A stretch of DNA of 64,000 nt from Novosphingobium sp. (GTDB lineage Bacteria; Pseudomonadota; Alphaproteobacteria; Sphingomonadales; Sphingomonadaceae): contig NZ_JAIEPN010000035.1 in assembly GCF_019748365.1 (NCBI RefSeq), positions 46,911 to 110,910 on the forward strand, in the 5' to 3' direction. Below, in pieces: positions 33,349 to 55,280 of this stretch. The notes beneath the pieces were generated by a model. The model saw nothing but the letters and a program-made list of their open reading frames with translations, was not told where the DNA came from and did no database searches. A program made the position numbers and the translations under genes. Position 1 is the stretch's first letter; each line of letters starts with the position of its first letter.

Positions 33349-33366
33349 ATGGCATACGTATACCAT
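33349..33366. promoter_or_regulatory. LacI-type operator in the divergent TBDR/lacI promoter
   Basis: Near-perfect CG-centred palindrome ATGGCATACGTATACCAT. Confidence 0.7.
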
Positions 33367-37695: not shown

Positions 37696-38703
37696 TCAGG
37701 TGCCCGGCGCGATCAGCACCTTGCACTGCTCGGTGCGGCGGCGGAGCGCTTCGAACACGGTGGGTGTGCTGCCAAGCGGGATGGTTTCGGTGACGAGGAG
37801 GCGCGGTTCGGCTGCACCCCGGTCCAGCGCATCGAGTGCGGCCTGGTACTCGTGCGTGGTGAAGAAAGCCGAGGTGACGAGGCGCACTTCCTTCGAGAGC
37901 ATGGCGAAGCTGTTGAAGGTATCGGGCATGGTGCACAGGCCCAGCAGCACAATAGTGCCGCGTGCGCGGACCTGCTCGACGCCTTGTGCAATGAGGCCGG
38001 GGACACCCACGCATTCGAATACAATGTCGGCTTTTCCGCCCAAGGCGCGTTCGGAGGCGCCGACGGGATCGGTGCGGTCCGCAATGAAATCATGCGCGCC
38101 CATAGCAAGCGCGCGGTCCTGCTGCCAGGTGGCGACATCCTGCACGACAACGCGCCCTGCCCCCATGCGGCGGGCCCAGAAGGCGGTGGCAAGGCCGATC
38201 GGCCCCGCGCCGAGGATCAGCACCTTGTCGCCGATGCGCATGCCGGCCATCGCCACACCGTGGAGCGCGACCGCGAGCGGTTCGATGATCGCGCCATCGG
38301 CGAGGCTGGCGGATTTCGGCAGCTTCACGCATTGGTTCGGATGCGTGAGCGCATATTCGGCATAGCCGCCGCCTTGCAGCCCGAACTTGTCGCACCACGA
38401 GACATTGCCGGCGAGGCAGGCCGGGCAGGCGCCGCAGCTCTTGAGCGGGCTGACAGCGACGAGATCGCCCTTGGCGAGGCCCTCGACGCCCTTGCCAAGC
38501 TCGATGACTTCGCCCGCAAACTCGTGCCCCAGGATCGAGCCCGCGCCCTGGCCGTAAGCCGGGTCCTCGGTCATGTGGAGGTCCGAGCCGCAAATGCCGC
38601 AGCGGCCGACCTGTATCACCACTTCGCCCGCGCCGGGCACCGGGTCAGGCACGGTTTCAACCGCGAGCGGCTTGTGCAGGCCCTGCATGACGGCGGCGCG
38701 CAT
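37696..38703 (-). CDS. Zn-dependent medium-chain alcohol dehydrogenase
   Basis: CGICGSDLH, GHEFAG, CxxCxxC...C structural Zn site, GAGPIG. Confidence 0.9.
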   Translation of the reverse strand: MRAAVMQGLHKPLAVETVPDPVPGAGEVVIQVGRCGICGSDLHMTEDPAYGQGAGSILGHEFAGEVIELGKGVEGLAKGDLVAVSPLKSCGACPACLAGNVSWCDKFGLQGGGYAEYALTHPNQCVKLPKSASLADGAIIEPLAVALHGVAMAGMRIGDKVLILGAGPIGLATAFWARRMGAGRVVVQDVATWQQDRALAMGAHDFIADRTDPVGASERALGGKADIVFECVGVPGLIAQGVEQVRARGTIVLLGLCTMPDTFNSFAMLSKEVRLVTSAFFTTHEYQAALDALDRGAAEPRLLVTETIPLGSTPTVFEALRRRTEQCKVLIAPGT

Positions 38704-38715
38704 GGACTTTGCTCC

Positions 38716-39465
38716 TCAGTGCGCTGTCTGGCCGCCATCGATGGCGATGGTGGCGCCATTGATGAAGCTGGCCGCTTCGGAGCAGAGGTGCAGCACGGTG
38801 CCCGCAATCTCTTCGGGCTGCGCAGCGCGGCCGCTGACATTGCCGGCGAAGAAGGCGGCACGGAAATTCGGATCGTCCGCCCAGTGCTGCGTCATGGGCG
38901 TGACCACGAAGCCCGGTGCGATGGCATTCACGCGGATGTTTTGCTGCGCATACTCGACTGCCGCCGCCTTGGTGAGGCCGGAAACGGCGTGCTTCATCGC
39001 GCAGTAGACGCTCATGTTGGGGTCCGCGATCAGCGCACCGACGGACGCGGTGTTGACGATAGCCCCGCCGCCTACTTTGAGGAAATGGCGGATTTCCGCC
39101 TGCATCGCGAAGAACACGCCCTTGAAGTCGACGTCGATCGCGAGGTTCATTTCCTCGGGCGTCACTTCATGGATGGGGCGCTGCGGCGGAAGGACGCCGG
39201 CGTTGTTGAAGGCGGCGTCCATCCGGCCGTAGCGCTGGATGCAGGCTGCGACGAGCGCGTCCATTGCCGCGGCATCGGTGACGTTGGCGTGCTGGAAGGA
39301 AGCCTCCCCGCCAGCCTGCTTGATGATCGCGACTGTTTCTTCGGCGCGTGGGTCAATATCGCCGATGATCACTTTCGCGCCCGCCCCAGCAAACGCCACA
39401 CAGGCTGCGCGGCCGATGCCGGTGGCGCCGCCGGTGACGAGGACGGCCTTATCCGCAAAAGTCAT
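38716..39465 (-). CDS. SDR oxidoreductase
   Basis: TGGATGIG, NNAG, NTASVG, YCAMKH, RVNAIAPG; ATGA overlap. Confidence 0.9.
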   Translation of the reverse strand: MTFADKAVLVTGGATGIGRAACVAFAGAGAKVIIGDIDPRAEETVAIIKQAGGEASFQHANVTDAAAMDALVAACIQRYGRMDAAFNNAGVLPPQRPIHEVTPEEMNLAIDVDFKGVFFAMQAEIRHFLKVGGGAIVNTASVGALIADPNMSVYCAMKHAVSGLTKAAAVEYAQQNIRVNAIAPGFVVTPMTQHWADDPNFRAAFFAGNVSGRAAQPEEIAGTVLHLCSEAASFINGATIAIDGGQTAH

Positions 39466-40349
39466 TCGGTCCATGCGGCCTGCTCCCCCTTGGCGACGCG
39501 CGAGGAATTGCCGAGGAGGAAATCGCCGAGCACGTCGACCGCGTCCGGAAAGGCCTTCTTCACCTTGTCGCTGAGCTCGGCACTGTTCTTCGAGGCGGCC
39601 ACCAGCTTGGGCCACTCGGCAATGTAGCGCCGGGTGAATTCGAGGCCGGAGGCATCGTCGGGCAGGCCCGGCTTGTTGTGCCCCGCAACGACGATCTCGG
39701 GCTTCAGCGCGATAAAGCCGTCATTCGCCTTGCCCCACGCGGCGATGGCCGCAGCATCGTGCTCGCCCATCCACAGGAACATCTGGTTGTAGACGAGATC
39801 GCCGGGGAAGAGCGCCTTGATCGAGGGTGCCCAGAGCGCGGTGGCATGGACATGGTCGCCCTGCACCGGGCCGAGGACCTTGAGCTCCTTGCCCTCGAGC
39901 ATGATCGTGTCGCCTTCCATCGCGGCGGGCGCGGTGGGATGGCGTGGCGAATTGACGCCGAGCACCGGATACCAGCGCTTCACCTTGAACGGGAGCGAGC
40001 GCCAGATGTCGGCAGCGACCACCGGGTGCGCGACGATTTTCGCATCGGGAAACGCATCCTGCAGCACTTCCATCGCGAAGAAATGATCGGGATGATCGTG
40101 CGTCACGAAGATGGTCGTGAGGCGCTTGCCGCTATCGAGCACCATGGCGACGACGCGGTGAGCATCGGCGCGGGTGAACGGCGCGTCGACAAGGACCGCG
40201 TCCTTCTCGCCCTTGATCAGCGCGATATTGGCGAACAGCGAGCCGCCGCTGGTGCGCAAGGTTTCGACGGTGAGTGGCTTTTCCTGCGCGTGGGCGGTGG
40301 TGGCGAGAAGCGCGGCGGCAAGCGCCAGAAGGGTTTTCCTGATCATCAT
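39462..40349 (-). CDS. Secreted metallo-beta-lactamase-fold hydrolase
   Basis: Sec signal (ATTAHA|Q), VLVDA, THDHPDH, H, PGDL, GH metal motifs. Confidence 0.85.
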   Translation of the reverse strand: MMIRKTLLALAAALLATTAHAQEKPLTVETLRTSGGSLFANIALIKGEKDAVLVDAPFTRADAHRVVAMVLDSGKRLTTIFVTHDHPDHFFAMEVLQDAFPDAKIVAHPVVAADIWRSLPFKVKRWYPVLGVNSPRHPTAPAAMEGDTIMLEGKELKVLGPVQGDHVHATALWAPSIKALFPGDLVYNQMFLWMGEHDAAAIAAWGKANDGFIALKPEIVVAGHNKPGLPDDASGLEFTRRYIAEWPKLVAASKNSAELSDKVKKAFPDAVDVLGDFLLGNSSRVAKGEQAAWTE

Positions 40350-41965
40350 GCAATTCCTGATTTGCCGGGGGCGAGGATATGGTTGGGGTCGAGCGCGTCC
40401 TTGAGCTTTGCGTTGAACGCGCGGTTCACGGCGCCGAATTGCTGCGCAACAAGGTCCATCGCGTGGACGCCGGTGCGGTAGCTGGCCCAGCCCCGTTCAC
40501 CGAAGCCGGTGACGAGTTCGCGGTAACAATCGTCAGCGCGCTTTTCCTCCGCCGGATCGGACTTGTCGTAGAGCAGCGCGATGATGTGGTGGAGTTCGCG
40601 GCTGCCGATGGCGAAAGCGGCGGTGTAGTCGAACCCGTGCTTGCCCAGGATCTGCTTGGCGAGCTCGACCTGCCCTTGCGTCTCGCTGCCCTTGGCGGGC
40701 GCGACGGGGGCGAACCATGCAAGGCCGCCGCCATTTCCGCGCCAGCGCGCGAGGCCGATCTCGTCCAGATTGAGGCCGCCCTGCATGAGGGTTGCGTGGT
40801 GGTGGAACCACGGGTTGTCGCCCATTTCGGCTTCGGTGAGGACTTCTCCGTCGATGGCGGCGAAGGCGGCGCGGATGATCTTCTCGCTTTCGGCGATCAT
40901 CCCTTCCGTGCCGTAGAGCGCGATATAGGTGTTCCACATGCCGAGGTTGTTGGCTGTGGCTGCCTTGGAGACTGCTTCATCCGTGATCGGGCCTGCGCCG
41001 TCCCACACCTCGCCGCGGCGCTTGAACATGGCGAGCTGATAGGCACCGCCCATCATCAGGACGACATTGGGGACAATGTTGGCAATGCGCAGCGGACGCA
41101 TCGCCTCGACGATCCGGGCGACGTCCTCCATCTTCCTGTGGCGGATGACGAAGGGCTTGTAGACCGGCGGCGCGGGCATCAGCCACATGCCCATCTTGGT
41201 GACCACGCCGAAGTTCGACTGGGTGAACAGGCCATCGAGATAAGGCCCGTAGCCCCACTTGAACGCCTGCCAGGCGGACGGATTGCGCGTCGAGCCCATG
41301 CCGGTGCGCAGGATCTCGCCATCCGCAAGGACGACTTCCATGCCGCACTGGACCATAAAGTGCTCGCCATAGGGCGTATAGCCGACACCGCGATCGAGCG
41401 TATTGCCGACCGGGCCGACCACCGGGCCCACGGTGGGTACGTCGATCCACAGCGGCAGGTTGTTTTCGACCAGATAGTCCTTGAGCTGGCGGTAGGTGAC
41501 GCCGGGCTCGACCAGCGCGGTGCAGAGCTCGGGATCGACCGAGATGATGCGGTTCATGCGCTTGAGGTCGAGGATCATCTGCCCCGGCATCGCGGTGGTC
41601 GTCTGGCCATAGCCCATGTTCTTGCCGGTGGAGACCGGCCAGATCGGCTGGCGGAACTGGTTGGCGATCTTCACGATGGCCTGCACCTGCTCGACGTTCT
41701 CGGGGCAGACCGCGCCGACGGGCACGTGCTTGCCGTAAGGATCGGGCGTGTAGGACTTCTTCCACGGCGCAACCGCTTCAGGATCGGCGAAGACCCATTC
41801 ATCGCCGACGACCTTGCGCATGGCGGCGACGGCGCCCTTGAAGTCGGCCTTCTTCACGCCGGGCGCGAGGACGGCCTTCGCCTTTGCACCGGTGCCGAGG
41901 CCCACAGCGGCGGCCGAAGCGGCGCCTGCGCCGAGAAGCGAGCGTCGGTCGAGACTGACGGTCAT
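40346..41965 (-). CDS. Tat-exported VAO/PCMH-family FAD oxidoreductase (flavocytochrome large subunit)
   Basis: Twin-arginine DRRSLLG; STGKNMGYG, EPGVTY, GNTLDRGVG, QSNFGVVTKMG, DPNHILAPGK. Confidence 0.9.
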   Translation of the reverse strand: MTVSLDRRSLLGAGAASAAAVGLGTGAKAKAVLAPGVKKADFKGAVAAMRKVVGDEWVFADPEAVAPWKKSYTPDPYGKHVPVGAVCPENVEQVQAIVKIANQFRQPIWPVSTGKNMGYGQTTTAMPGQMILDLKRMNRIISVDPELCTALVEPGVTYRQLKDYLVENNLPLWIDVPTVGPVVGPVGNTLDRGVGYTPYGEHFMVQCGMEVVLADGEILRTGMGSTRNPSAWQAFKWGYGPYLDGLFTQSNFGVVTKMGMWLMPAPPVYKPFVIRHRKMEDVARIVEAMRPLRIANIVPNVVLMMGGAYQLAMFKRRGEVWDGAGPITDEAVSKAATANNLGMWNTYIALYGTEGMIAESEKIIRAAFAAIDGEVLTEAEMGDNPWFHHHATLMQGGLNLDEIGLARWRGNGGGLAWFAPVAPAKGSETQGQVELAKQILGKHGFDYTAAFAIGSRELHHIIALLYDKSDPAEEKRADDCYRELVTGFGERGWASYRTGVHAMDLVAQQFGAVNRAFNAKLKDALDPNHILAPGKSGIA

Positions 41966-42279
41966 TGGCCATGCTCCTTGGGATCGGCAGCGCTGTTCTG
42001 GACCCAGACAGCGAGCGCCTTCAGCTCGGCGGGGGTGATTTCGGTCGGACGGAAGGCGGGCATCGCATTGAGGCCATGGCGGACCTGATACTCGACCGCC
42101 TCGGCAGGAAGGGCGCGCCCGCGGATCACCGGGCCGACATTCTTGCCGTGGCAATAGCCGCAGACGGCCGAATAGACCTGTTCCGGGCTGCGCTGCGCCT
42201 GCACTTCGCCCAGCTTCTGCGCCGCCTGCGCGGTTCCGGCGAGCGCGAGGCCCGCGGCTAGAAGAGCGGCCCGCTTCAT
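41962..42279 (-). CDS. c-type cytochrome subunit (PchC-like)
   Basis: Signal peptide, CGYCH, VGPVIRGR, VRHGLNAMPAF; ATGA overlaps on both sides. Confidence 0.9.
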   Translation of the reverse strand: MKRAALLAAGLALAGTAQAAQKLGEVQAQRSPEQVYSAVCGYCHGKNVGPVIRGRALPAEAVEYQVRHGLNAMPAFRPTEITPAELKALAVWVQNSAADPKEHGQ

Positions 42280-43115
42280 TGGAATTTCCCCAGCATCATG
42301 CCTCCATCGATCACGACATGGCTTCCGGTCATGTAATCGGAAGCATCCGACGCCAGCAGCAAGGCCAGCGGTTTGAGTTGGTCCGTCTCCGCCACCGCGC
42401 CGAGCGGCACGATGGCATCCCACGCCTTGCGCGCGACAGGGTCCTTCTTGAGCCATCCGCCGCCGATATTGGTAACGAAGGGCCCGGGCGCGATGGCATT
42501 GATGCGGATGCGGAACTCGGCGAGTTCGAGCCCAAGCGCGCGGACCATGTGTAGCACGCCCGCCTTGGCCGGCATGTAGGGCAGGCCGACGATGGGTTCT
42601 GTGACGAGGCCTGCGTTGGAAGCGGTGCAGATGATCGAGCCGCCGCTGCGGCCATTGGCGCGGCCGGGCTGCTTCATCACGCGCACGGCGTTGCTCACGG
42701 TGTAGAACACGCCCGAGAGATTGACCGAAATCGACTTGTCCCAGCGCTTCGGGTCGTAGGTATCGACCTGGCCATCGGGATTGCGGTGGCCGCCCGGGTT
42801 CCAGAAGCCCGCCCCGGTATCGATGCCGGCATTCGCGAAGGCGATGTCGAGCCCGCCATAGGCCTTGGCGTGGGCGTCGAATGCGGCGGCGACGGCATCG
42901 AAATCGGAGACATCAAGGCGGCCGGCGCGGGCTTCATGCCCCGCCTCGCGCAGACGGGCGGCTTCCCTTTCGGCGCCTTCGCCGTCGATATCGGTAAGCG
43001 TGACGGCAGCCCCGGCTTCCGCCATCGCCTCGGCATAGGCGAGGCCGATGCCCGAGGCCGCGCCGGTGACCAGAGCACTGCGGCCCTTGATGTCAAAGCG
43101 GTCCAGAATTGCCAT
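42276..43115 (-). CDS. SDR oxidoreductase
   Basis: TGAASGIG, ANAG, CTAS, YMPAK, RINAIAPG. Confidence 0.9.
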   Translation of the reverse strand: MAILDRFDIKGRSALVTGAASGIGLAYAEAMAEAGAAVTLTDIDGEGAEREAARLREAGHEARAGRLDVSDFDAVAAAFDAHAKAYGGLDIAFANAGIDTGAGFWNPGGHRNPDGQVDTYDPKRWDKSISVNLSGVFYTVSNAVRVMKQPGRANGRSGGSIICTASNAGLVTEPIVGLPYMPAKAGVLHMVRALGLELAEFRIRINAIAPGPFVTNIGGGWLKKDPVARKAWDAIVPLGAVAETDQLKPLALLLASDASDYMTGSHVVIDGGMMLGKFQ

Positions 43116-43147
43116 TGTCGTTGTTGTCCTCTCCTTCCGCAGCGGCC

Positions 43148-44218
43148 TTATTCAGCGGCTTGCGGTTGTCGTTCTCGATCAATCAGGCGTTGCAGCATGC
43201 GGCGCGCGCGCACGCCGCCGCCGTCGCCGTTCAGGATGACGGGCCGCAGCTCCCAGAAGTCAGCGCCGCGCATCAGGCGGTGGCTGTCGCGGATGAGCGG
43301 CATGTCTTCCTGCTCGAACGCGAATTCGAGCGCGCCGCGCATGCCGGCGCTGAACTCCGCATCGCCCAGCGCGAAATCGCGTGCGGTGGCCCAGAAGTAG
43401 TGGGTGGTGTCCGGCGTTTCCGGCGTGAAGGCGTGGAGCGAGGGCAGCAAAGTGCAATCCTCGCGCGAGGTTCCCGGAGGCCCGGCACGGAAGTCGAAAT
43501 AGAGCACGGCGGGGGCGTGCCAGACGACCCAGCCATAGAAATCCTGCTTCACCCCGACCCGCCCGAGCATCCCGCCGATGCCGTCGGAGAGAGTGTCGTC
43601 GAGGCGGATGTATTCCGAGTGCACCGTTTCGCCGTCCTGCCAGAACTTTCGCTCGCCCTCGGTGAAGGCGGCGGCAACCAGTGCAGGGTGGACGAAGTTG
43701 GCGTGGCTGAGATCGAGGATATTGTCGCTGTAGAGCTCGTAGTGCCCCTCGGCGACGGTCGCGCCGCGCACGGCTTCCCACTTGGGATCAGACAGCCAGC
43801 TGAAATCGGGGATCAGCGCGGGATCGGCCTGTGCGGCATCGCCCATCCATATCCACAGCAAGGCATGGCGTTCGACAAGCGGATAGACGTGCAGCCGGTT
43901 TTCCGGGAGCTGGCCGCCGGGATGCGGGTTGTGGACGCATGCCCCGGTGCCGTCGAAGCGCAGGCCGTGGTAGGGGCACATGAGCGCGCCTTCCACCACC
44001 TTGCCCTTCCCCAGCGGCGCCCAGCGATGCGGGCAGCGCCCGGTGACGGCATTGGCCTTGCCCTCCCCGTCGCGGAACAGCGCGACGGGTTCCTCAAGGA
44101 AAACCCGCTGCTGCGGAGCTTCGCCCAGATCTGAGGCCCAGCCTGCAACATACCACGTGTTGCGCAAGTACGTGCCCTGTGGCTCAGGACCGAGTTTGGG
44201 GACCCCAGCAGCGTTCAT
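43148..44218 (-). CDS. Rieske non-heme iron oxygenase alpha subunit (VanA-like)
   Basis: CPH...CPYH Rieske motif; DNILDLSHANFVH mononuclear Fe motif; FEQED. Confidence 0.9.
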   Translation of the reverse strand: MNAAGVPKLGPEPQGTYLRNTWYVAGWASDLGEAPQQRVFLEEPVALFRDGEGKANAVTGRCPHRWAPLGKGKVVEGALMCPYHGLRFDGTGACVHNPHPGGQLPENRLHVYPLVERHALLWIWMGDAAQADPALIPDFSWLSDPKWEAVRGATVAEGHYELYSDNILDLSHANFVHPALVAAAFTEGERKFWQDGETVHSEYIRLDDTLSDGIGGMLGRVGVKQDFYGWVVWHAPAVLYFDFRAGPPGTSREDCTLLPSLHAFTPETPDTTHYFWATARDFALGDAEFSAGMRGALEFAFEQEDMPLIRDSHRLMRGADFWELRPVILNGDGGGVRARRMLQRLIDRERQPQAAE

Positions 44219-44230
44219 GCCGGCCCCTCC

Positions 44231-44764
44231 TCAGAGATAGAGCTGCTTGTTGATCGGGATGTTGTGCTCCCTGCAATAGGTCTCGTAGTGGTTCATGAAC
44301 CACCAGACATCGAGCGTTTCGACGTGGTTGCCGTGCTCGTCGAAGAACTCGTTGGCGCCCTGCATGTGGAACAGCGCCTTCATCCCGTTTGGATCATCGG
44401 TGACAAGCGTGTGGGCGGTGCCCGGCGTTTCGGTGATGAACTCGCCCGGCTTGCAGACCCAGTCGTACTCCAGATAGCGGAACGAGCCTTCGAGCCCGAT
44501 CGCCCAGACCCGCCCGCGGTGCTTGTGCGTGCCGATGACACCCGGGCCCTTGATCCACAGGATGTTGACGTAGACGTTGTCGCGCACGTCGAACGCCAGG
44601 TGCCGGATCGCGGCGTTGTCGCCGAAGGGCACCCACGGGCTCTCGGCTTCCGAAGCGCCGACGTAAGTGCCTTCGACGCCCTTGGACTTGATCAGGGCGC
44701 CGTAAAGCTCGGGAACGTCGACGATCTTGTAGGCGCCTGAAGGCGGCGCGGTCATTGTGGCCAT
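44231..44764 (-). CDS. 2,4'-dihydroxyacetophenone dioxygenase family cupin (divergent paralog 1)
   Basis: PWVPF, GTHKHRG, RYLEYDWV, ETPGTAHTL. Confidence 0.8.
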   Translation of the reverse strand: MATMTAPPSGAYKIVDVPELYGALIKSKGVEGTYVGASEAESPWVPFGDNAAIRHLAFDVRDNVYVNILWIKGPGVIGTHKHRGRVWAIGLEGSFRYLEYDWVCKPGEFITETPGTAHTLVTDDPNGMKALFHMQGANEFFDEHGNHVETLDVWWFMNHYETYCREHNIPINKQLYL

Positions 44765-44777
44765 TGTGCCTGACCTC

Positions 44778-45314
44778 TCAGAGATAGAGCTTGGGATTGA
44801 TGGGAATGTCGTTTTCCCGGCAATAGGTCTCGTAGTGGTTGATGAACCACCAGACGTCCGAGGTATCGACGTACTTGCCGTTCTCGTCGAAGAACTCGAT
44901 CGGGCCCTGCATCCACCCGAACAGCTTCACGCCTTCGGGGTGCTCGGTGACGAGGGTGTGGCTTTCGCCAGGCACTTCGAGGATCAGCCCGCCAGGCGAT
45001 GCAACCCAGTCGTATTCGAGATAGCGCACGCTGCCTTCGAGGCAGACCATTACGATCGTGCCGCGATGGAGGTGCGTGCCGATCGTGCCGGGGCTCTTGA
45101 CCCACAGGATGTTGGAGAAGATGCCCTGCCGTACATCGAAGGCGAGGTGCTTGATCGCCGCGTTGTCGCCGAAGGGCACCCAGGGGCTGTCGACGTCGGT
45201 CTGGGCGTCGATATAGCGACCGCCCGGGCTCAGCCGCGCGACGAGGTCGCGGTGGGCAAAACCGACATCGACGATTTCCTTCTTGCTCGAAGGCGGTGCA
45301 GTCATCGCGTTCAT
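44778..45314 (-). CDS. 2,4'-dihydroxyacetophenone dioxygenase family cupin (divergent paralog 2)
   Basis: PWVPF, GTHLHRG, RYLEYDWV, EVPGESHTL. Confidence 0.8.
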   Translation of the reverse strand: MNAMTAPPSSKKEIVDVGFAHRDLVARLSPGGRYIDAQTDVDSPWVPFGDNAAIKHLAFDVRQGIFSNILWVKSPGTIGTHLHRGTIVMVCLEGSVRYLEYDWVASPGGLILEVPGESHTLVTEHPEGVKLFGWMQGPIEFFDENGKYVDTSDVWWFINHYETYCRENDIPINPKLYL

Positions 45315-45328
45315 GAGAAGCGCTCCTT

Positions 45329-45862
45329 TCAGCGGATCAGCGTATCGACGTAATCGGCGCCGATGCCGACCCGGTCGTAATGCTCGCGCGCATTCTTGAT
45401 GTAGTCAAACACATCGAAATGCCCGGTGGTGTTGCCATCATCGTCCAGCCACATGAGCGGGCCGGAGACAACGAAGAACACCTTCATCGGGTCTTCGTGT
45501 TCGTAGCAGACGAGCGTGTGGCTCTCGCCCGGCGTTTCGTAGATGAAGTCGCCAGCGGTCGCGGTCCATTCGTGCTCGAGATAGGCCCACTTGCCGCTGA
45601 TCGTGTAGGCCCAGATCGGATGCGGGTGGTAGTGGCGGTTCACCAGGCCCGCCGACTTCGACATGAGCACATCGGCCCACATGTTCTTGGTCGGGCTGAT
45701 CCAGACGGGCTTGGAGCTCACCGTCTCGCTGATCGGCACCCAGTAGCGTTCGTCGCCTTCCGCAATCTTGGACATGTAGACTTCGGGAAGACCGCCCTCC
45801 CGGAACACCTTCTCGACCGGCTTGATGCCTTTCCAGAATTCGGAATGCGCGGTTTCAGGCAC
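45329..45862 (-). CDS. dad: 2,4'-dihydroxyacetophenone dioxygenase (canonical DAD-like)
   Basis: SEFW, DERYWVP, AGLVNRHYHPH, YTISGKWAYLEH, ETPGESHTL, REHYDRVGIGAD; closely matches the Alcaligenes/Burkholderia DAD as recalled; GTG start. Confidence 0.82.
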   Translation of the reverse strand: MPETAHSEFWKGIKPVEKVFREGGLPEVYMSKIAEGDERYWVPISETVSSKPVWISPTKNMWADVLMSKSAGLVNRHYHPHPIWAYTISGKWAYLEHEWTATAGDFIYETPGESHTLVCYEHEDPMKVFFVVSGPLMWLDDDGNTTGHFDVFDYIKNAREHYDRVGIGADYVDTLIR

Positions 45863-45884
45863 GTCTGTCTCTCCTCAGGTGAGT

Positions 45885-45912
45885 GGGGCGGACGCCTCGC
45901 AGCGCCCGCCTC
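45885..45912. terminator. Stem-loop between TBDR and dad
   Basis: GGGGCGGACGC-CTCGCA-GCGCCCGCCTC. Confidence 0.45.
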
Positions 45913-45926
45913 CTCGATTTTGGCCT

Positions 45927-48491
45927 TTAGAACTTCACGCCGAGCCTTGCGTACCATTCGGCCGGACGGCTGTAGGTGCCGTAAATCTGGCCGCCGGCGA
46001 GCTGGGCCTGACCGGTGGTCAGGTAGCGCTCGTTGGTGAGGTTGGTGCCGCCCACAGTCAGCTCCCAGTGGTTGCTGGGATCACGGTAGGTCACGCTCGC
46101 ATTGACAACGGTGGTCTGAGGACGCTGCAGCAGGAATGTCCGCTCGGTGTCGTTCCACAAGCTGCTGGTGAGAGTCACGTCACCCAGGAACACCAGGCTG
46201 CCGTGGTTGCCAAGGTCCGCCTCATAACGCGGGCTGAAGTTCCACTTGAACTTCGGCGTCTTGGGCAGCGCAGCGCCCTTGAACACACCGGCCTGGATCG
46301 GGGTCGGTGCGACGAACGAGTTGTTGCCTTCGCAGAACGCCGGGAAATTGCCGCCCTCGCCGCAGATCACGGTGTACTTCGCATCGGTGTAGCCGACCGA
46401 ACCGGTGAAGGTCAGGCCCTTCGCGGGCGCCGCCACGACTTCGACCTCGAAGCCGCGGATGCGGGCATTACCGGTGTTCTGCACAGTGGGCGAGATGCCC
46501 TTCTGCGAGTTCAGCTGGATGCCGGTATAGTCGGTGGTGAAGGCCGCCGCGTTGATCTGCAGGTGCCGGTCAAGCAGTTCGGACTTCACGCCGATTTCCC
46601 AGGTCGACGCCTCTTCCGGCCCGAAGCCCGGAGCAAACGGCAGCGGGTTCGACAGACGGGTGGTCCAGCCACCGGTCTTGTAGCCCTTCGACCAGCTACC
46701 ATAGACCATCACGTCGTCGGTCGGGTGGTACTGGAGCCCGACCTTGGGTGCAAAGTTGTTGAACTTCTTGTTCTGCGTTCCGGCGATGTAATAGCGCAGC
46801 GGCTGACCGGGATTGGGGAACCCGCCAGCGGCCTGGCACGCGGCCGAGATCGTGGAGATGTTCTCGCAGCCCGGAACGCCGAGGAAGTTGAGGATCTTGT
46901 AGGTCAGGCCGTTGCGATCGGACTGAAAGCCTTCGAAGTCCTTGTCTTCATGCGTATAGCGGCCGCCCAGCGTGATGCCGAACTTCTCGGTGAACTTGTA
47001 GTCGACCTGGCCGTAGAACGCGAAGTTCTTCGTCTTGAGGTCGTTCGGGCCGTCGATCTGGAGCAGGCCTTCCGCGAACGTCACGTAATCGTGCAGATCG
47101 CCCGATTCCGTGAAGTAGTAGGCGCCGAACACGTAATTGAGCTTCTTCTCCAGCGCGCTGCCGGCCACCTGCAGTTCCTGGCTGAACTGCTTCTGGTTCA
47201 TGGTGAAGCTGGTGTGGAGGAAGTTCAGCGGCGAGTTGTCGAGGTCCATACCGGTGTTCCAGTGGAGCTCGCGGTAAGCGGTGATCGACTTCACCGTGGC
47301 ATTGCCGATGTCGTACTCCATCGTCAGCGCGCCGCCGCCGGACTTCAGCTTGGAGTAGTTGTTGCCGTTGGCGTAGCTGGTGTCGATGTTGTTCGTCACG
47401 AACCGGCTGTCATAGGGCAGGCGGTTGTTGGTCGGATCGGCATCGGCATTCACGCCGAAGATCGACGGCAAATCGTTGATTCCGTTAAGACCACCGCGAT
47501 TGCCGAACAGCGCGAAGGAGGGAGGACCACCTCCGCAAGTGGTCGTGTCACCCGGTGCTGCGATCACGCCCGCAATCGCGCAGTTGTAAGTCGCGGCAAA
47601 GACCGGCGCGAAGACCGAGATGACCTTGTTGGCGATCTGCGAGGTATCGACCCGCGAATAGTCGCCCGAAAGCACCGCGCGGAATGCGCCGCCGTTGTTG
47701 AAGCGGATCTTGCCGCGCAAGTTCCAGTTGTTGTCGCCACCTTCGGTGCCAAGCCCGATATTGTTGTAGCTGGCAGCCTTGAACCTGGTGATCGGATCAG
47801 AGGCAAAGTTCTCCGCACCCGGGAATGGCAGGCGGTGGAGGTAGCCGTCACGAGTCTTGACCGAGAAGGCGAGCGAGGACGACAGGCTGTCCGTCAGCGG
47901 CATATCAACCGTGCCGCGCGCCGAGAACAGCTTGTAGCTACCGGTCATCACATCACCGCGGAAGCGGAATTCGTTGCCCGGATCATGGGTGACGATCGAG
48001 ATCGCGCCGCCGATGGTGTTGCGGCCAAAGAGAGTGCCCTGCGGACCCTTGAGAACCTCGACGCGCTCCACGTCAGGCAGTTCCTGGTTCGCGCCGACCG
48101 AGCGGGCGAGGTAGACGCCGTCGAGATAGATGCCGACGCCCGGATCGATGTTGAAGGCAAAGTCGTTGGCGCCGATGCCGCGAATGTAGGCCGAGAGCAC
48201 CGACGACGAGCCCGAGAACGGCGTGCCGGCATCAAGCGTGACGTTGGGCGCGATGTTCGACAGCGAAGCGACGCTGGTCACCGCACGCTCCTGCAGCGCG
48301 CTCGCCGTGAAGGCCGAGATCGAGATCGGCACGTCCTGGACGTTTTCCGAGCGCTTCTGCGCGGTGACGACGATTTCGGCGATGCCGCCTTCGGGCGCGG
48401 CTTCAGCCTGGGCCTGCGGTGCGGATTGTGCCAGCGCCGGCGAGGCCAGTGTGGCCGCAAGCACGGCAAGCGATACCGATGCGAGTCTCAT
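45927..48491 (-). CDS. TonB-dependent receptor (aromatic island)
   Basis: Signal peptide, EIVVTAQKRSENVQDVPISI, RVEVLKGPQGTLFGRNTIGG, C-terminal VKF. Confidence 0.93.
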   Translation of the reverse strand: MRLASVSLAVLAATLASPALAQSAPQAQAEAAPEGGIAEIVVTAQKRSENVQDVPISISAFTASALQERAVTSVASLSNIAPNVTLDAGTPFSGSSSVLSAYIRGIGANDFAFNIDPGVGIYLDGVYLARSVGANQELPDVERVEVLKGPQGTLFGRNTIGGAISIVTHDPGNEFRFRGDVMTGSYKLFSARGTVDMPLTDSLSSSLAFSVKTRDGYLHRLPFPGAENFASDPITRFKAASYNNIGLGTEGGDNNWNLRGKIRFNNGGAFRAVLSGDYSRVDTSQIANKVISVFAPVFAATYNCAIAGVIAAPGDTTTCGGGPPSFALFGNRGGLNGINDLPSIFGVNADADPTNNRLPYDSRFVTNNIDTSYANGNNYSKLKSGGGALTMEYDIGNATVKSITAYRELHWNTGMDLDNSPLNFLHTSFTMNQKQFSQELQVAGSALEKKLNYVFGAYYFTESGDLHDYVTFAEGLLQIDGPNDLKTKNFAFYGQVDYKFTEKFGITLGGRYTHEDKDFEGFQSDRNGLTYKILNFLGVPGCENISTISAACQAAGGFPNPGQPLRYYIAGTQNKKFNNFAPKVGLQYHPTDDVMVYGSWSKGYKTGGWTTRLSNPLPFAPGFGPEEASTWEIGVKSELLDRHLQINAAAFTTDYTGIQLNSQKGISPTVQNTGNARIRGFEVEVVAAPAKGLTFTGSVGYTDAKYTVICGEGGNFPAFCEGNNSFVAPTPIQAGVFKGAALPKTPKFKWNFSPRYEADLGNHGSLVFLGDVTLTSSLWNDTERTFLLQRPQTTVVNASVTYRDPSNHWELTVGGTNLTNERYLTTGQAQLAGGQIYGTYSRPAEWYARLGVKF

Positions 48492-48622
48492 GTTGCTCTC
48501 CCTATCCAAATGTCACTGCCCGCTTCGCCCCCTGGCGGTCGGACATGCGCATTCGAATTCATACTCGGCTTCGGACCGATGGGCTTGGACTGGAGCGCAG
48601 GCACATCAGGACTGAAGCGCAA

Positions 48623-49561
48623 TCAGCCCTGATTCCGTCGCCATTCACGGGGTGAAACGCCAAAACGCTGGCGAAACGCCCGCGCAAAGTAGGCGCTGTC
48701 GTTGAAGCCGAGTTCGAAGGCCACCTCGGTTATGCTCGCCTCCGGTGCTGCACCAAGGCGCTCGGCAGCGCGGGCAAGCCGGCGCTCCAGAATATAGCCG
48801 CTGGGTGTCGTACCCATGCCGGCAAACAGATTCTGTATCGTGCGCACCGATGCGCCGCAGGCAGCCGCGAGGCTGAGCGTGCGCAGCGCCGGATCGGCAA
48901 GCTGCGCCTCGACGATCCCGAGAACGCGGCGGCGCAGCGCACTGTCGGCGGCGGGCGAAGCGGCATCGGGCTTTGCCGCCCCGCGCATCGCGAGCGCAAT
49001 GAGATCGTAGAACACCTGGCTCACCCCATCCTGCCAGTCGGGATCGACAAACCCCTGCTGGCTCTGCCGCCAGAGCGAGAGCAGGAAATCGTGGAAGACG
49101 CGTGCACCCGGCGTCGCACCGCTCATCCGCATGCGCAAGGCATCATCAAGGCCGGGAAACCGCTCGGCCAAGGGCGCGCGGGGAAACTCGACCACCAGCA
49201 ATTCGTGCGCGGCAAGGTCCATGGCATAGGCTTCGTGCGGGGAAGCGATGATGAAATCGCCCGCACCAAGCGTGGTTTCGGTGCCGCTCTGGCGGTGCAC
49301 GCTCGAGCCGCGGCATTGCAAATGAAGGATCAGCCGCTCGTCCGCTGTATAGCGCGGATCGCGGCCGACGAACGAGGCGGTCGAGCGCGGGCGGATCATC
49401 GCCAGATCGCCGACCTGCCAGGTCCACATCTCGCCGGTGAAATCCTCGCTGGCGCTTTTCACATAAGTGCCGCTGTAGACGCTGTCGACCAGCGCGTTCC
49501 AGAACGCGAGACGTTCGGGCGGTGAGATGCCATCGGTGGCGAACTTTTGCACTGCGGTCAT
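48623..49561 (-). CDS. AraC family regulator (FeaR-like ligand domain)
   Basis: Start moved to MTAVQKFATDG; ERLAFW; C-terminal GFNDSAYFARAFRQRFGVSPREW. Confidence 0.88.
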   Translation of the reverse strand: MTAVQKFATDGISPPERLAFWNALVDSVYSGTYVKSASEDFTGEMWTWQVGDLAMIRPRSTASFVGRDPRYTADERLILHLQCRGSSVHRQSGTETTLGAGDFIIASPHEAYAMDLAAHELLVVEFPRAPLAERFPGLDDALRMRMSGATPGARVFHDFLLSLWRQSQQGFVDPDWQDGVSQVFYDLIALAMRGAAKPDAASPAADSALRRRVLGIVEAQLADPALRTLSLAAACGASVRTIQNLFAGMGTTPSGYILERRLARAAERLGAAPEASITEVAFELGFNDSAYFARAFRQRFGVSPREWRRNQG

Positions 49562-49587
49562 GGCGGGCACATCCTTGGCAGTGAGGG

Positions 49588-50853
49588 TCAGGCGGGAAGA
49601 GGCGCGCGGCGGGCGACAACGCGCGGGGCGGATTCGACAAGGCCGAGCGCGCAGAACCCGGCAAGAATGCACAGCGCGAACATGAGCCACAGCGCAGCGG
49701 AGAGGCCGTAGACATCGGCCAGCGCCCCGGCAAGGAAGGGGCTGAGCACGCCGCCCAGCACCTCGCCGGTGCCCATGACCACACCGGTGAGCGTAGCGGT
49801 GAGACGCGGAACGACCGATTCCGAAGGGATCGTCGCCATGAACATCGGGAACAGGCCATTGAGGCCCCACCCGAAGAAGAAGATCGCCGCCAGCACCCAG
49901 GTCGAGCCGGTGAAGTAGAGCCCGCCGAGCGGCAGGATCACGCCGAGAAAGGAGAAGCCGATCATCACCGGGCGGCGCCCGATGGCATCGGAAATGGCCG
50001 GGACGACAAAGCTGCCGAGGCCCGCCGAAAGGCCGAGAGTCGCCATCAGCCAGCCCATTGTCTCGGGCGCGAAGCCGCGCTCCTTGGTGAGATAGAGCGG
50101 CATGAAGGCCCAGCAGACGACAAGGTAAGAGACGAGCAGCACCGAGATCACCGCGCAGAGCACGACATTGCGGTGGCGGAAGGCTTCGGAAAGCGGTACT
50201 GTCGGCTTCTCGCCAAACGCGAGATGGTGCGCTTCGGCGGGCGGTTCGCGCAAGGTAAACCAGATCAGCAGCGCGGTGAGGAGGCCGGGCGCGGCGGCGA
50301 GATAGAACCCCTCGCGCCAGCCATAAGCCGCAGCAACCGGGACCAGCAGAATCGGCGCAAGCCCAGAACCGAGCAGGTTCGAACCGAGGTTCTGCGCCAC
50401 GCCCATCGCCATGCCGCGCCGCTCGGGTGCGACTTCGCTGACGATCATCGAATGGCTGACCGGCATCACACCGCCCTCCGCCGCGCCCATCAGCAGGCGC
50501 GCACCGAGCAGCATGAAGAACGAGGAGGCAAGGCCCGAGGCGAAGGAGCACAGGCAGAACGCGATGGTCGCGACCACGACCACGGGTTTGCGCGAGCCGA
50601 GCTTGTCCGAAATGCGCCCCACCGCAAGGCCGGACAGCGCCCAGGTGAGCGAAAGCGCCGAGCTGAACATGCCCACCTGCGTGTTGCTGAGCTGCAGATC
50701 GGGCTGCACAAAGGGCATGAGGAAATTGAGCGCGTTGCGGTCGAAGAACAGGATCCCGAAGTTTAGGCTGAGCAGCCCGACAACCCAAGCCTGATAGCCG
50801 CCGCTGGCGCGCTGTGAGGCGTCCACGCTGGACGTGTGCGGGGCGCCGCTCAC
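49588..50853 (-). CDS. MFS transporter (aromatic acid/ACS-like)
   Basis: FFDRNAL, GRISDKLGSRK, ARLLMGAAEG, SDAIGRR; 12 TM pattern; GTGA overlap. Confidence 0.88.
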   Translation of the reverse strand: MSGAPHTSSVDASQRASGGYQAWVVGLLSLNFGILFFDRNALNFLMPFVQPDLQLSNTQVGMFSSALSLTWALSGLAVGRISDKLGSRKPVVVVATIAFCLCSFASGLASSFFMLLGARLLMGAAEGGVMPVSHSMIVSEVAPERRGMAMGVAQNLGSNLLGSGLAPILLVPVAAAYGWREGFYLAAAPGLLTALLIWFTLREPPAEAHHLAFGEKPTVPLSEAFRHRNVVLCAVISVLLVSYLVVCWAFMPLYLTKERGFAPETMGWLMATLGLSAGLGSFVVPAISDAIGRRPVMIGFSFLGVILPLGGLYFTGSTWVLAAIFFFGWGLNGLFPMFMATIPSESVVPRLTATLTGVVMGTGEVLGGVLSPFLAGALADVYGLSAALWLMFALCILAGFCALGLVESAPRVVARRAPLPA

Positions 50854-51404
50854 AGGAACGGCCTCACGGGCGCGGTCTCGCCGTCCCAATCCTGCGCGGC
50901 CTGCCACTGCGCGGTGAACAGCGTGTTCATGCCCTCGGTCGCGGGGATCAGTTCAAGGAAACCGGGCGCGGCGGGATCGGCGCTTTTGAGATAGGCGACC
51001 GAGCCGCCGGTGGGCACCGGCGCGCGAAAAGCAAGGGTGTGGCCGCGATCAAGGTAATCGGCAAGCGCCGCATCGACATCGGTGAAGGCAATGCCGAAGT
51101 GGTGGAAACCGTAGCCGCGCGCCTCGATGGTTTCGCGGTAGACGGACGGGTGATCATCAAGCGGCTGGATCAGTTCGATCTGCATGTGCCCGGCAAAACC
51201 CATCGCGATCGCGACATCGGCCTGCGACGGCGCGCCGCGATAGACCTGTCCCTCACCCAGGAAGTGCTCGAGCAGGAAGAAAGGCCCTGCCCCGCAGTCG
51301 CGCTGGAAGTGGGTGATTGCGGCATGGATGTCAGCCACCACGAACGCGGTCTGCACCACGCCCCCGATGCGCTGTCCAAAGCCCAGAGCCTGCACCATTC
51401 CCAC
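50850..51404 (-). CDS. VOC family protein (glyoxalase/methylmalonyl-CoA epimerase-like)
   Basis: QTAFVVADI, QIELIQP, GFHHFG, LELI metal-binding pattern. Confidence 0.8.
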   Translation of the reverse strand: MGMVQALGFGQRIGGVVQTAFVVADIHAAITHFQRDCGAGPFFLLEHFLGEGQVYRGAPSQADVAIAMGFAGHMQIELIQPLDDHPSVYRETIEARGYGFHHFGIAFTDVDAALADYLDRGHTLAFRAPVPTGGSVAYLKSADPAAPGFLELIPATEGMNTLFTAQWQAAQDWDGETAPVRPFL

Positions 51405-51474
51405 TCCACCCCTTCCCTCGCGCCCGCCGTTTGTCCGGCTGGGCCATTATGGTTCGGGCCTTTCGGCCCCAATG

Positions 51475-52488
51475 TCAGAGCGTAATCACCACCTTGCCGA
51501 ACAGCGCGCTGGACGACTGGTAGCGATAGGCCTCCAGCGCCTGTTCGATACCGAACGAGCGGTCGATCACCGGCTTGATGGCGTGCGTATCGATGAAGGC
51601 ATTGAGCCGGCTCGCCATGCCGCGCGAGCCGACGAAGATGCCGCGGATGCTGCCGCCCTTGAACATCAGGGGATGGGGATTGGTATCGCCCTCGCGGGTC
51701 AGCACGCCGATCAGCGCGATCTCGCCGCCGAAACCGACCGCGGTGATGCTTTGCTTGAGCGTGCCAGCACCGCCGACTTCGACGACATGGTCAACGCCGC
51801 CGCCGGAAAGATCAGCCGCAGCGGTGCCCCAGGCCGGCACTTCGCGGTAGTTGATCGTCTTGTCCGCGCCGAGCGCGGCGGCGCGGACGAGCTTTTCATC
51901 GGACGAGCTTGTCGCAATCACTTGCGCGCCGGCCGCCTTGGCGATCTGCAACGCAAGCAGCGAAACGCCGCCGGTGCCGAGCACCAGCACACTTTCGCCC
52001 GCACGGACCGGGTGCGGCCCTTCCATCAACGCGTTCCATGCGGTGACACCCGCGCAGGGCAGGCAGGCCGCTTCCTCGAACGAGAGGCTTGCCGCCAGCG
52101 GCACGACGCCGTGTTCGGGCAGAACGACAAGGTCCTGCAGCATGCCGGTCGCAGGCGGCGCCCCGAGTGCCGGGCCAGCGCCCGGGTTCGGCGGGCCATC
52201 GAGCCAGTTCTGGAAGAAAGTTCCGGCGACGCGGTCGCCCGGCTTTACCGAGGTCACCCCTGCCCCGACTGCAACGACTTCACCCGCGCCATCGGACAAG
52301 GGGACCGTATCCACTGCAACGGCGCCGCCCATATAAAGGCCCAGCGGGATGATCTGGTCGCGGTAGTTTAGCGAGCAGGCGCGCACCCGCACCAGAACTT
52401 CACCGGGGCCTGCCTGCGGCTCGGGCACATCACGCAGAGCCATGTCGCCCAGCGACGTCGCGCCCGCCCGGATCACCCACTGCCGCAT
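51475..52488 (-). CDS. NAD(P)-dependent MDR/quinone-oxidoreductase-like dehydrogenase
   Basis: ACSLNYRD, SDGAGEV, PCAGVTAWNAL, GTGGVS, FGKVVI. Confidence 0.88.
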   Translation of the reverse strand: MRQWVIRAGATSLGDMALRDVPEPQAGPGEVLVRVRACSLNYRDQIIPLGLYMGGAVAVDTVPLSDGAGEVVAVGAGVTSVKPGDRVAGTFFQNWLDGPPNPGAGPALGAPPATGMLQDLVVLPEHGVVPLAASLSFEEAACLPCAGVTAWNALMEGPHPVRAGESVLVLGTGGVSLLALQIAKAAGAQVIATSSSDEKLVRAAALGADKTINYREVPAWGTAAADLSGGGVDHVVEVGGAGTLKQSITAVGFGGEIALIGVLTREGDTNPHPLMFKGGSIRGIFVGSRGMASRLNAFIDTHAIKPVIDRSFGIEQALEAYRYQSSSALFGKVVITL

Positions 52489-55263: not shown

Positions 55264-55280
55264 GCGCAAAGGCCAGAACC

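Follow-up and report, generated by a model that had tools for sequence, protein, structure and literature searches.

In the bacterial funnelling of lignin fragments, ring cleavage and the beta-aryl-ether route are well mapped, and the shortening of oxidised C2/C3 side chains is partly known. To our knowledge, 2,4'-dihydroxyacetophenone dioxygenase (DAD) is the only characterised alpha-hydroxyketone-cleaving 3-His Fe(II) dioxygenase in its fold family so far. Here we analysed a stretch of 64,000 nt (the window) from Novosphingobium sp. GCF_019748365.1 (contig NZ_JAIEPN010000035.1, positions 46,911-110,910 of the forward strand), in which three tandem genes encode the DAD-family cupins P1, P2 and P3. 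DAD (EC 1.13.11.41; structures PDB 4P9G and 5BPX) assembles as a dimer of dimers through a strand-swapped interface; three histidines (His76/His78/His114) form its iron site, and the crystal structure shows no metal coordination by Glu95 or Glu108 (PMC4219425). Tyr93 hydrogen-bonds the alpha-hydroxyl/peroxo intermediate, Glu108 is the proposed O2 gate, Trp61 and Asp63 bind the phenol hydroxyl, Phe43 and Phe129 stack on the substrate, and Ser49 and Tyr153 form a polar pocket; Phe129, which lines the peroxo-intermediate pocket, has been described as invariant among DAD homologues (PMC4219425).

Genes annotated as DAD have also appeared in lignin-related work. In Novosphingobium sp. MBES04, MBENS4_1161-1158, annotated 'DAD', 'hypothetical / tRNA modification GTPase', short-chain dehydrogenase/reductase (SDR) and 'GroES' and designated cluster G-II/L-III (Kumagawa et al. 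2023, PMC10866074), were the most strongly induced genes, by up to 45-fold with the beta-O-4 dimer GGGE and up to 89-fold with eucalyptus lignin. The cluster promoter responded best to beta-hydroxypropiovanillone (GHP/HPV), also to 2,4'-dihydroxyacetophenone (2,4'-DHAP) and not to vanillin. The AraC gene MBENS4_1157 adjoins the cluster, MBES04 accumulates GHP and cannot use it, and the authors state that the function of the four genes is unknown (PMC10866074). In Erythrobacter SG61-1L, a survey of SDRs included one whose gene directly follows two DAD genes and precedes that of a benzyl alcohol dehydrogenase; this SDR showed weak NAD+-dependent C-alpha dehydrogenase activity with two GGE stereoisomers, and the authors considered it native to another pathway. 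Work on N. aromaticivorans explicitly left unidentified the enzyme removing the side chain from GD, a diol, or from the Hibbert ketones GP-1 and GP-2, and GP-1/GP-2 interconversion is part of the proposed route (Linz 2021).

Results

P2 and P3 form a DAD-like subfamily separate from DAD

The host of the window is a freshwater Novosphingobium that carries all three cupins. A sequence-only reading of this DNA had described three tandem cupins of 177-178 a.a., 13-14 nt apart, and the open reading frames (ORFs) lie exactly there (Table 1), with gaps of 14 nt (P1/P2) and 13 nt (P2/P3), each associated with a GGAG/GAGG Shine-Dalgarno-like site. The gene for a TonB-dependent receptor ends 64 nt before P1, and 12 nt separate P3 from a Rieske oxygenase gene. 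The GC content at third codon positions of the three cupin genes (0.84-0.88) matches that of the surrounding real genes. Pairwise comparison of P2 with P3 gave 60% identity (106/178; E 2e-79), in agreement with the value of about 60% estimated by eye, and the description of the pair as distant from P1 also held, with 30% identity between P1 and P3 and 35% between P1 and P2 (aligned core). Every one of the motifs quoted in that reading is present (MTAPPS, SPWVPFGDNAAI.HLAFDVR, GTH.HRG, DVWWF.NHYETYCRE..IPIN..LYL and RHYHPH...HTL).

P1 had been taken for a canonical DAD, which our searches confirmed. It matched 4P9G, the DAD of Alcaligenes sp. 4HAP, over residues 4-177 (phmmer E 2.5e-83), is about 70% identical to it in a full-length comparison by eye, sharing its ligands and pocket, scored 39.2 bits for Pfam Cupin_7 (PF12973; gathering cut-off 27), and clustered with DAD in a neighbour-joining tree built from 90 full-length representatives. 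P1 keeps His76/His78/His114, Tyr93, Glu108, Trp61, Asp63, Phe129, Leu135, Trp137 and Tyr153. Its pocket differs from that of DAD at Phe43->Ile, with the Ser49/Tyr153 polar pocket and Trp61/Asp63 retained, and the catalytic and pocket residues are likewise retained in all 57 P1 orthologues collected. NCBIfam assigned no family to P1 or P2.

P2 and P3 formed their own small clade in the same tree, in a major branch other than that of DAD. Their relationship to DAD is detectable by sequence (PDB search: P2 versus 5bpx, E 6e-19; P3 versus DAD, E 1e-19), at 27-29% identity in a trimmed family alignment. The AlphaFold2 model of P2 (pLDDT 88.3, pTM 0.81) has the DAD-type monocupin fold with the N-terminal extension and the C-terminal helix, and Foldseek ranked DAD first (5bpx/4p9g; template modelling (TM) score 0.84-0.85, target-normalised), followed by 3ebr, 3cjx and then Dke1 (3bal; TM 0.76). 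The former two are the uncharacterised Cupriavidus/Ralstonia structural-genomics cupins Reut_A0381 and Reut_B4571, with a DAD-like fold and 20-23% identity; both were also matched by sequence (3ebr: P2, E 4e-14; P3, E 5e-12). No characterised member of the P2/P3 clade was found in the PDB or in the searchable literature, which held nothing on the subfamily beyond the MBES04 transcriptome and the SG61-1L SDR survey; a JACS 2025 paper merely cites DAD. The separate branch and this negative search bear out the earlier suggestion of an uncharacterised subfamily.

NCBI and JGI label P2/P3-type proteins as DAD family proteins. Some members of the subfamily are mislabelled 'tRNA modification GTPase' in GenBank (MBENS4_1160/GAM04457.1 and P0043, a 79%-identical P2 homologue from a Desulfuromonadales metagenome-assembled genome (MAG)), a propagated mis-annotation. 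Many P2 orthologues have a precomputed PF12973 match. An assignment to the ChrR anti-sigma-E factors (TIGR02451) was rejected, since P3 alone was matched, at 18 bits against a cut-off of 124.5, through the cupin part and with no anti-sigma domain.

The catalytic site is conserved throughout. His76/His78/His114 are retained in all orthologues examined (57 P1, 81 P2 and 60 P3 sequences) and in 140 P3-type sequences, and Tyr93 is invariant in the same 57, 81 and 60 sequences. Glu108 (Glu113 in P2) is invariant in P1-P3 of the window, in 31 P2 homologues and in the divergent members checked. The motif context of the iron site is GTHLHRG / GESHTLV in P2/P3, versus G(X)3RHXHP ... EGHTLV in DAD. Therefore, of the HxH...E...H metal ligands noted at first, the three histidines are kept everywhere, whereas the glutamate is not a ligand, the DAD site being a 3-His one (PMC4219425).

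P2 and P3 have differently remodelled pockets

P2 and P3 share with the Alcaligenes DAD the fold (TM 0.85 for the P2 model), the size, the 3-His site, Tyr93 and Glu108, but the residues lining the substrate pocket are replaced in both: Trp61->Phe/Tyr, Asp63->Asn, Ser49->Ile, Tyr153->Phe, Trp137->Phe and Met156->His. P2 carries in addition Phe129->Gly and Phe148->Ser. The P3 signature, Tyr61-Phe129-Asn135-Leu148, was found in 140/140 orthologues, and the P2 signature is [F/Y]61-G129-I135-[T/S/A/V]148, with Gly129 invariant. More divergent relatives (63-70% identity) have Gly129 and a small residue at 148, and three of them carry Asn, not Ile, at 135. Because the bulky Phe129 and Phe148 are exchanged for small residues, the P2 pocket is predicted to be larger than those of P3 and DAD, and it may fit a different, possibly bulkier or methoxylated, alpha-hydroxyketone.

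These replacements bear on whether P2 and P3 are redundant DAD isozymes acting on 2,4'-DHAP, an idea in line with their database name (NCBI/JGI), with the induction of the MBES04 promoter by 2,4'-DHAP and with the kept catalytic residues. We consider redundancy quite unlikely, since Trp61, Asp63, Ser49 and Tyr153 are replaced in all P2/P3 orthologues while the neighbouring P1 retains every one of them, and invariant but different pocket signatures in P2 and P3 across bacterial orders would be unexpected for redundant enzymes.

P2 and P3 are ancient paralogues

In a set of 195 orthologues drawn from 80 genome loci, each of the three types (P1, P2 and P3) was monophyletic, with P2 and P3 as sister types. 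Identity was 73-100% within P2, 67-100% within P3 and 50-65% between the two types, and P2/P3 pairs from the same locus were merely 56-64% identical. A recent tandem duplication or gene conversion is ruled out by this reciprocal monophyly together with the low same-locus identity, which indicate that the duplication is old and that gene conversion is absent. The 'duplicated pair' of the sequence-only reading thus did not arise locally: P2 and P3 are paralogue types of ancient origin, each of which occurs without the other. Purifying selection acts on both copies.

A pond Novosphingobium MAG (L001) encodes a protein 100% identical to P2, and the N. fuchskuhlense protein matches P2 at 98%. Relatives of P2 were found in at least 516 species-representative genomes, almost all of Sphingomonadales, and metagenomes from drinking water, wastewater, biofilm and sediment contained near-identical DNA. 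Among 1.84 billion cluster representatives, a profile search detected 1,040 DAD-like clusters, 52 of them at E<=1e-30.

P2 and P3 occur singly or together in the same operon slot

We scanned genomes with P2 and, separately, metagenomes with P3, and scored the loci with enough flanking DNA. The 68 P2-anchored genome loci comprised 43 with P1+P2+P3, 12 with P2 only, 8 with P2+P3 and 5 with P1+P2; the 40 P3-anchored metagenome loci comprised 16 with P1+P2+P3, 12 with P1+P3, 6 with P2+P3 and 6 with P3 only. Thus, P3 was absent within range in 17/68 P2-anchored loci and P2 in 18/40 P3-anchored loci, where the range is a few kb and an absent partner may sit elsewhere in the genome, as in L035, L055 and L119. 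The same operon slot is therefore taken by P2, by P3 or by both, whether P1 is present or absent. This co-occurrence argues strongly against P2 and P3 as mere helpers of P1.

The earlier reading had also raised a hetero-oligomer, in which P2 and P3 would be the subunits of one obligate (alpha/beta) dioxygenase. The two genes are adjacent, 13 nt apart and apparently co-transcribed, the P2-P3 order is kept in 51/68 P2-anchored loci as well as in MBES04 and SG61-1L, and DAD forms a strand-swapped dimer of dimers. Nevertheless, loci with P2 only, P3 only, P1+P2 or P1+P3 are common, which argues against an obligate heteromer; many are compact P1-P3-SDR-ADH and P2-SDR-ADH operons (ADH, alcohol dehydrogenase), and in Halomonas and Pseudosulfitobacter a single cupin stands with the SDR and the ADH. 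Furthermore, the catalytic site is complete in both proteins, unlike in a typical catalytic-plus-structural pair. We therefore regard the obligate heteromer as highly improbable. The separate co-occurrence of P2 and of P3 with the two dehydrogenases favours independent homo-oligomers, an assembly read from gene content.

The same loci bear on whether P2 and P3 are non-oxygenase cupins, either isomerases or epimerases (e.g., for GP-1/GP-2 or for enantiomers) feeding P1 or another enzyme, or ChrR-like regulators. Many cupins are isomerases, phosphomannose isomerases and KdgF are among the distant Foldseek matches, the best Pfam model is the ChrR cupin-like domain, and GP-1/GP-2 interconversion belongs to the route proposed in N. 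aromaticivorans. An isomerase would, however, leave the module without a cleavage enzyme in the many loci that have P2 or P3, the SDR and the ADH and no P1, and the DAD-specific Tyr93 and Glu108 are strictly kept; a regulatory role is opposed by the missing anti-sigma N-terminal domain (TIGR02451, 18 bits versus 124.5). We judge this alternative very unlikely.

With regard to expression, contigs of about 90% identity span the P3/P2, P2/P1 and P1/TonB receptor junctions (Logan runs X31 and X35, with guessed RNA labels; window positions 42200-48600), suggesting polycistronic transcription in related strains, with DNA carry-over possible. Short exact-match contigs across the cluster, found in the RNA-labelled runs X25 and X26 from the non-bacterial 'organism A', suggest a low-level presence of this Novosphingobium in libraries of other organisms. 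A promoter/terminator consensus scan of the window was uninformative, with 0 promoters and fewer terminators than in shuffled sequences.

Two dehydrogenases are conserved partners of the cupins

In 60/68 P2-anchored and 34/40 P3-anchored loci, an SDR gene (SDR42) is found downstream of the cupin at a distance of at most 3.5 kb. The second conserved partner, ADH37, directly follows SDR42 in most loci without the FAD oxidase insert described below. The PDB relatives of ADH37 are sorbitol, butanediol and idonate dehydrogenases, and the closest solved relatives of SDR42 are the Candida parapsilosis carbonyl reductases 3ctm (E 5e-38) and 7dld. One of the two Candida enzymes used for stereoinversion, RCR, is a Zn-dependent medium-chain ADH. 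The Candida carbonyl reductases interconvert 2-hydroxyacetophenone and 1-phenyl-1,2-ethanediol, and in the RCR/SCR pair (SCR, PDB 3CTM) two dehydrogenases convert the 1-phenyl-1,2-ethanediol enantiomers via 2-hydroxyacetophenone. The relatives of SDR42 and ADH37 thus point to vicinal-diol/alpha-hydroxyketone redox chemistry. RCR/SCR may serve as a model for the roles of SDR42 and ADH37 upstream of the cupins, yet the pair is fungal, carries out stereoinversion rather than catabolism, and is moderately similar to SDR42.

The cupin-SDR-ADH module is also found outside Sphingomonadales. A Halomonas replicon carries a P3-type cupin (78%), SDR42 (61%) and ADH37 (63%), followed by a major facilitator superfamily (MFS) transporter (60%), and a plasmid of the diatom-associated Pseudosulfitobacter pseudonitzschiae carries a cupin (58% to P3), an SDR (49%) and an ADH (54%) behind an XylR-type regulator. 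On the Rhodococcus qingshengii plasmid NZ_CP077418.1 (L163, 566795-581226), two DAD-family cupins stand with an SDR and a '2,3-butanediol dehydrogenase'. We rejected these cupins as a P2+P3 pair: one is P3-like at 47%, the one in front of it is a very divergent DAD-like protein (25-27%), and the SDR is 30% identical to SDR42. By sequence, the Rhodococcus block is an analogous, not orthologous, arrangement. It adjoins a cytochrome P450, a PDR/VanB-type reductase, an IclR regulator, an aldehyde dehydrogenase and the formaldehyde-assimilation genes hxlA/hxlB, a neighbourhood typical of the O-demethylation of methoxylated aromatics.

The module probably corresponds to a lignin-induced operon

We next compared the module with the induced cluster of MBES04. 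The 3' 293 nt of its promoter fragment, PClusterG-II (600 bp), are 87% identical to the stretch immediately preceding the P2 orthologue in N. profundi (L017), where the gene order is P2 (87%), P3 (86%), SDR42 (69%) and ADH37 (71%). In addition, the MBES04 'GroES' gene encodes a Zn-ADH N-domain. Because the promoter matches the sequence upstream of P2 in L017, and because the GTPase label also occurs on P0043, we infer that the MBES04 cluster corresponds to the P2-P3-SDR42-ADH37 core. On this basis, it would share with the window the four-gene core (cupin-cupin-SDR-Zn-ADH) and an AraC neighbour, and it would provide the sole expression data for the module. Unlike the window, the MBES04 locus has no P1, TonB receptor, Rieske oxygenase or FAD oxidase and starts after a tRNA gene; its promoter has no counterpart within the window, where the TonB receptor and AraC genes precede the cluster instead. 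The arrangement reported for SG61-1L was seen in the Erythrobacteraceae loci L048, L061, L075 and L076. The induction in MBES04 by lignin, GGGE, HPV and 2,4'-DHAP supports the relevance of P2/P3 to lignin.

The identity of the strongest inducer raises a further alternative, in which P2 and P3 would be beta-dicarbonyl dioxygenases like Dke1: ADH37 would turn HPV into vanilloyl acetaldehyde, the cupin would split it, and the VOC protein would handle the resulting 2-oxoaldehyde. Dke1 of Acinetobacter johnsonii (PDB 3BAL) is a small 3-His Fe(II) cupin that uses O2 to cleave an aliphatic C-C bond; among structural neighbours of known function it ranks directly after DAD, and a glyoxalase-fold gene such as that at 50850-51404 is a frequent neighbour of the cupins. 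On the other hand, MBES04 accumulates GHP despite the 45-89-fold induction of the cluster, and P2 is closer to DAD (TM 0.85, 29%) than to Dke1 (TM 0.76, 16% identity), which acts on a beta-diketone and is devoid of the DAD-type C-terminal helix motif DVWWF.NHYETYC. Moreover, Tyr93, which hydrogen-bonds the alpha-hydroxyl in DAD, is invariant, and the glyoxalase-fold protein had no informative homologue in the PDB search. The Dke1-like reaction is unlikely on balance, though we would still give it an outside chance.

Accessory and neighbouring genes

The remaining genes of the cluster are summarised in Table 1. The aromatic context of the window consists of a VAO/PCMH-type 4-phenol oxidoreductase (FADox40), a VanA-type Rieske oxygenase (Rieske43) and an acvCDEF-like carboxylase operon, and the variable accessories of the window all fit phenolic side-chain metabolism. 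Rieske43 is present in 42/68 P2-anchored loci. A second VanA-type Rieske protein (33-39% identical to Rieske43) follows the cupin in the Rieske43-less loci L021, L023, L037, L039, L050, L052, L054, L060, L068 and L073, which are mostly without P3 (L039 and L050 carry it); this suggests that the two Rieske types are alternative oxygenase partners.

Table 1 Features of the window discussed in the text.
Feature	Position	Strand	Description
Tryptophan-halogenase-family protein	28638-30374		
TonB receptor	30402-33479		1025 aa
LacI-family regulator	33536-34579		
ADH37	37696-38703	minus	Pfam ADH_N + ADH_zinc_N; Zn-dependent polyol/butanediol-type ADH, second conserved partner
Extra SDR	38716-39480	minus	Accessory, in part of the loci only
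MBL-fold protein	39462-40349	minus	Signal peptide; accessory, in part of the loci only
FADox40	40346-42154	minus	VAO/PCMH-family 4-phenol oxidoreductase, accessory
SDR42	42276-43115	minus	Pfam adh_short_C2; conserved partner of P2/P3 cupins
Rieske43	43148-44218	minus	Pfam Rieske + VanA_C; DdmC 3gb4 E 7e-65; VanA/DdmC-type, accessory
P3	44231-44764	minus	177 aa; Phe129-type, same DAD-like subfamily as P2
P2	44778-45314	minus	178 aa; Gly129-type, DAD-like subfamily
P1	45329-45862	minus	177 aa, GTG start; orthodox DAD orthologue
Spurious ORF	45822-48632	plus	936 aa
TonB-dependent receptor	45927-48509	minus	Pfam Plug + TonB_dep_Rec_b-barrel; position conserved in Novosphingobium loci
AraC-family regulator	48623-49561	minus	Pfam HTH_18 + AraC_binding_2; C-terminal 312 aa (MTAVQKF...) of the 721-aa spurious ORF
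Spurious ORF	48623-50788	minus	721 aa
MFS49	49588-50907	minus	MFS transporter (Pfam)
Glyox50	50850-51404	minus	VOC/glyoxalase-fold protein (Pfam)
Zn-ADH/quinone-oxidoreductase-like protein	51475-52488	minus	Pfam
Divergent operon	53582-58923	plus	UPF0261, biotin carboxyl carrier, biotin carboxylase, carboxyltransferase (PYC_OADA/HMGL-like), HAD hydrolase

FADox40 is a very close homologue of PDB 9ffk (nsVAO of Novosphingobium sp.; E 3e-251, 838 bits, residues 103-601) and also matched PCMH 1dii (E 3e-165). The N-terminal ~100 a.a. of the listed ORF had no match and may represent an over-extended start or a signal sequence. nsVAO (9FFK/9FGE) is an unusual member of the eugenol hydroxylase clade with non-covalent FAD, and its natural substrate was stated to be unknown (PMC7617285). 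Since FADox40 lies inside the cupin cluster, we suggest that nsVAO-type oxidases naturally act on a para-alkyl- or hydroxyalkyl-phenol that feeds the cupin pathway.

The TonB receptor is 71-77% identical in L001-L009, nine of the ten closest loci, and 91-92% identical in L010 and L032; the examined neighbours of the receptor in L001-L009 are at least 82%, mostly 90-100%, identical. The divergence of the receptor looks like allelic replacement or diversifying selection. MFS49, Glyox50 and the quinone-oxidoreductase-like gene (49588-52488) form the upstream part of the conserved cluster, and Glyox50 and MFS49 directly flank the cupin in many loci. As the listed MFS and VOC genes overlap by 58 nt, the true start of MFS49 is probably further downstream. 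PDB searches with the glyoxalase-fold and MBL-fold neighbours gave no functional lead.

The last four genes of the divergent operon match acvC-acvD-acvE-acvF of the Sphingobium SYK-6 acetovanillone carboxylation system in order and domains, but a UPF0261 (Tm-1-like, ATP-binding) protein stands in place of AcvAB, the phenylphosphate-synthase-like kinase of SYK-6, and may act as an alternative activating enzyme. In most Novosphingobium loci, the gene for this protein adjoins the cupin cluster. Farther away, the region 28638-34579 encodes a tryptophan-halogenase-family protein, a second TonB receptor and a LacI-family regulator, a trio that often accompanies polysaccharide-utilisation clusters in sphingomonads. 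Two spurious long ORFs overlap real genes on the same or the opposite strand, as a GC content of 65% would lead one to expect.

Discussion

The family, the fold and the database label 'DAD family protein' were already known for P2 and P3. What is new is that they form a separate subfamily with two stable pocket types and that this subfamily is the core of a portable cupin-SDR-ADH module in hundreds of genomes; that this module is also the lignin-fragment-induced operon of MBES04 is our deduction from the promoter and gene order. The evolutionary and structural parts of the picture are near-certain.

For the function, we propose that P2 and P3 are independent Fe(II) dioxygenases that cleave aryl alpha-hydroxyketones distinct from 2,4'-DHAP, and that the two dehydrogenases produce these ketones from aryl 1,2-diols; we think this about as probable as its opposite. 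In the resulting scheme, whose reaction type, substrates, step order and oligomeric state are deduced, phenolic 1-aryl-1,2-diols and side-chain alcohols from lignin (aryl-ethanediols, aryl-propanediols and arylglycerols) would enter via the TonB receptor and the MFS transporter. SDR42 and ADH37 would oxidise them to aryl alpha-hydroxyketones, possibly with complementary stereospecificity as in the RCR/SCR pair. P2 and/or P3 would next use O2 to break the C(=O)-C(OH) bond, yielding an aromatic acid (vanillate or 4-hydroxybenzoate type) and a short acid. By a DAD-like mechanism, the substrate would chelate Fe(II) via its keto and hydroxyl oxygens, O2 would lie beside Glu108, and Tyr93 would steady the peroxo intermediate. 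P1 would cleave 2,4'-DHAP-type substrates to an aromatic acid and formate. P2 and P3 may divide their substrates by side-chain length, ring methoxylation or regio/stereo-isomer, each working alone and most likely homo-oligomeric like DAD, and an AraC-type regulator sensing aryl ketones would turn the cluster on.

Several observations weigh against this proposal. The basis for predicting Fe(II) dioxygenase activity, and alpha-hydroxyketones as the substrate class, is an identity of about 30% to DAD, and P2 and P3 score just under the PF12973 (ChrR cupin-like domain) cut-off of 27, at 25.5 and 26.6 bits, respectively. The phenol-hydroxyl binders Trp61/Asp63 are replaced in both proteins, and the 'invariant' Phe129 of DAD is Gly in every P2. 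The equation of MBENS4_1161/1160 with P2/P3, and of SG61-1L gene 474 with SDR42, comes from synteny and promoter match, not from protein sequences. Finally, HPV, the strongest inducer in MBES04, is a beta-hydroxyketone rather than an alpha-hydroxyketone; as it is accumulated and not degraded by MBES04, inducer and substrate may differ. For the substrate class itself, aryl alpha-hydroxyketones, we see roughly even odds.

A more specific version of the proposal concerns C6-C3 compounds. GP-1 is a C3 homologue of a DAD substrate, and the P2/P3 clade could represent the missing side-chain-cleaving dioxygenases for C6-C3 lignin alpha-hydroxyketones (GP-1, GP-2 and 2,3-dihydroxypropiovanillone from arylglycerols). 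With the SDR and the Zn-ADH, they would constitute a portable three-enzyme aryl-diol-to-acid module, distributed from Sphingomonadales to Halomonas and Roseobacteraceae, in which the Gly129 and Phe129 types divide substrates by isomer or methoxylation. We advance this version tentatively, as the less probable outcome. If true, it would fill the cleavage step in the G-diketone/GP-1 catabolism of N. aromaticivorans and account for the GHP-sensing operon in MBES04.

With four proteins, it becomes possible to test directly how the side chains of oxidised C2/C3 lignin monomers are cleaved. Even if the functional proposal is false, the analysis corrects the annotation of these genes (DAD, hypothetical protein, 'tRNA modification GTPase') in hundreds of genomes. 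If it is true, the known substrate range of 3-His Fe(II) dioxygenases that cleave aliphatic C-C bonds would be widened, and the module would turn heterogeneous aryl diols and ketols directly into vanillate-type acids, which would be useful for biological lignin valorisation.

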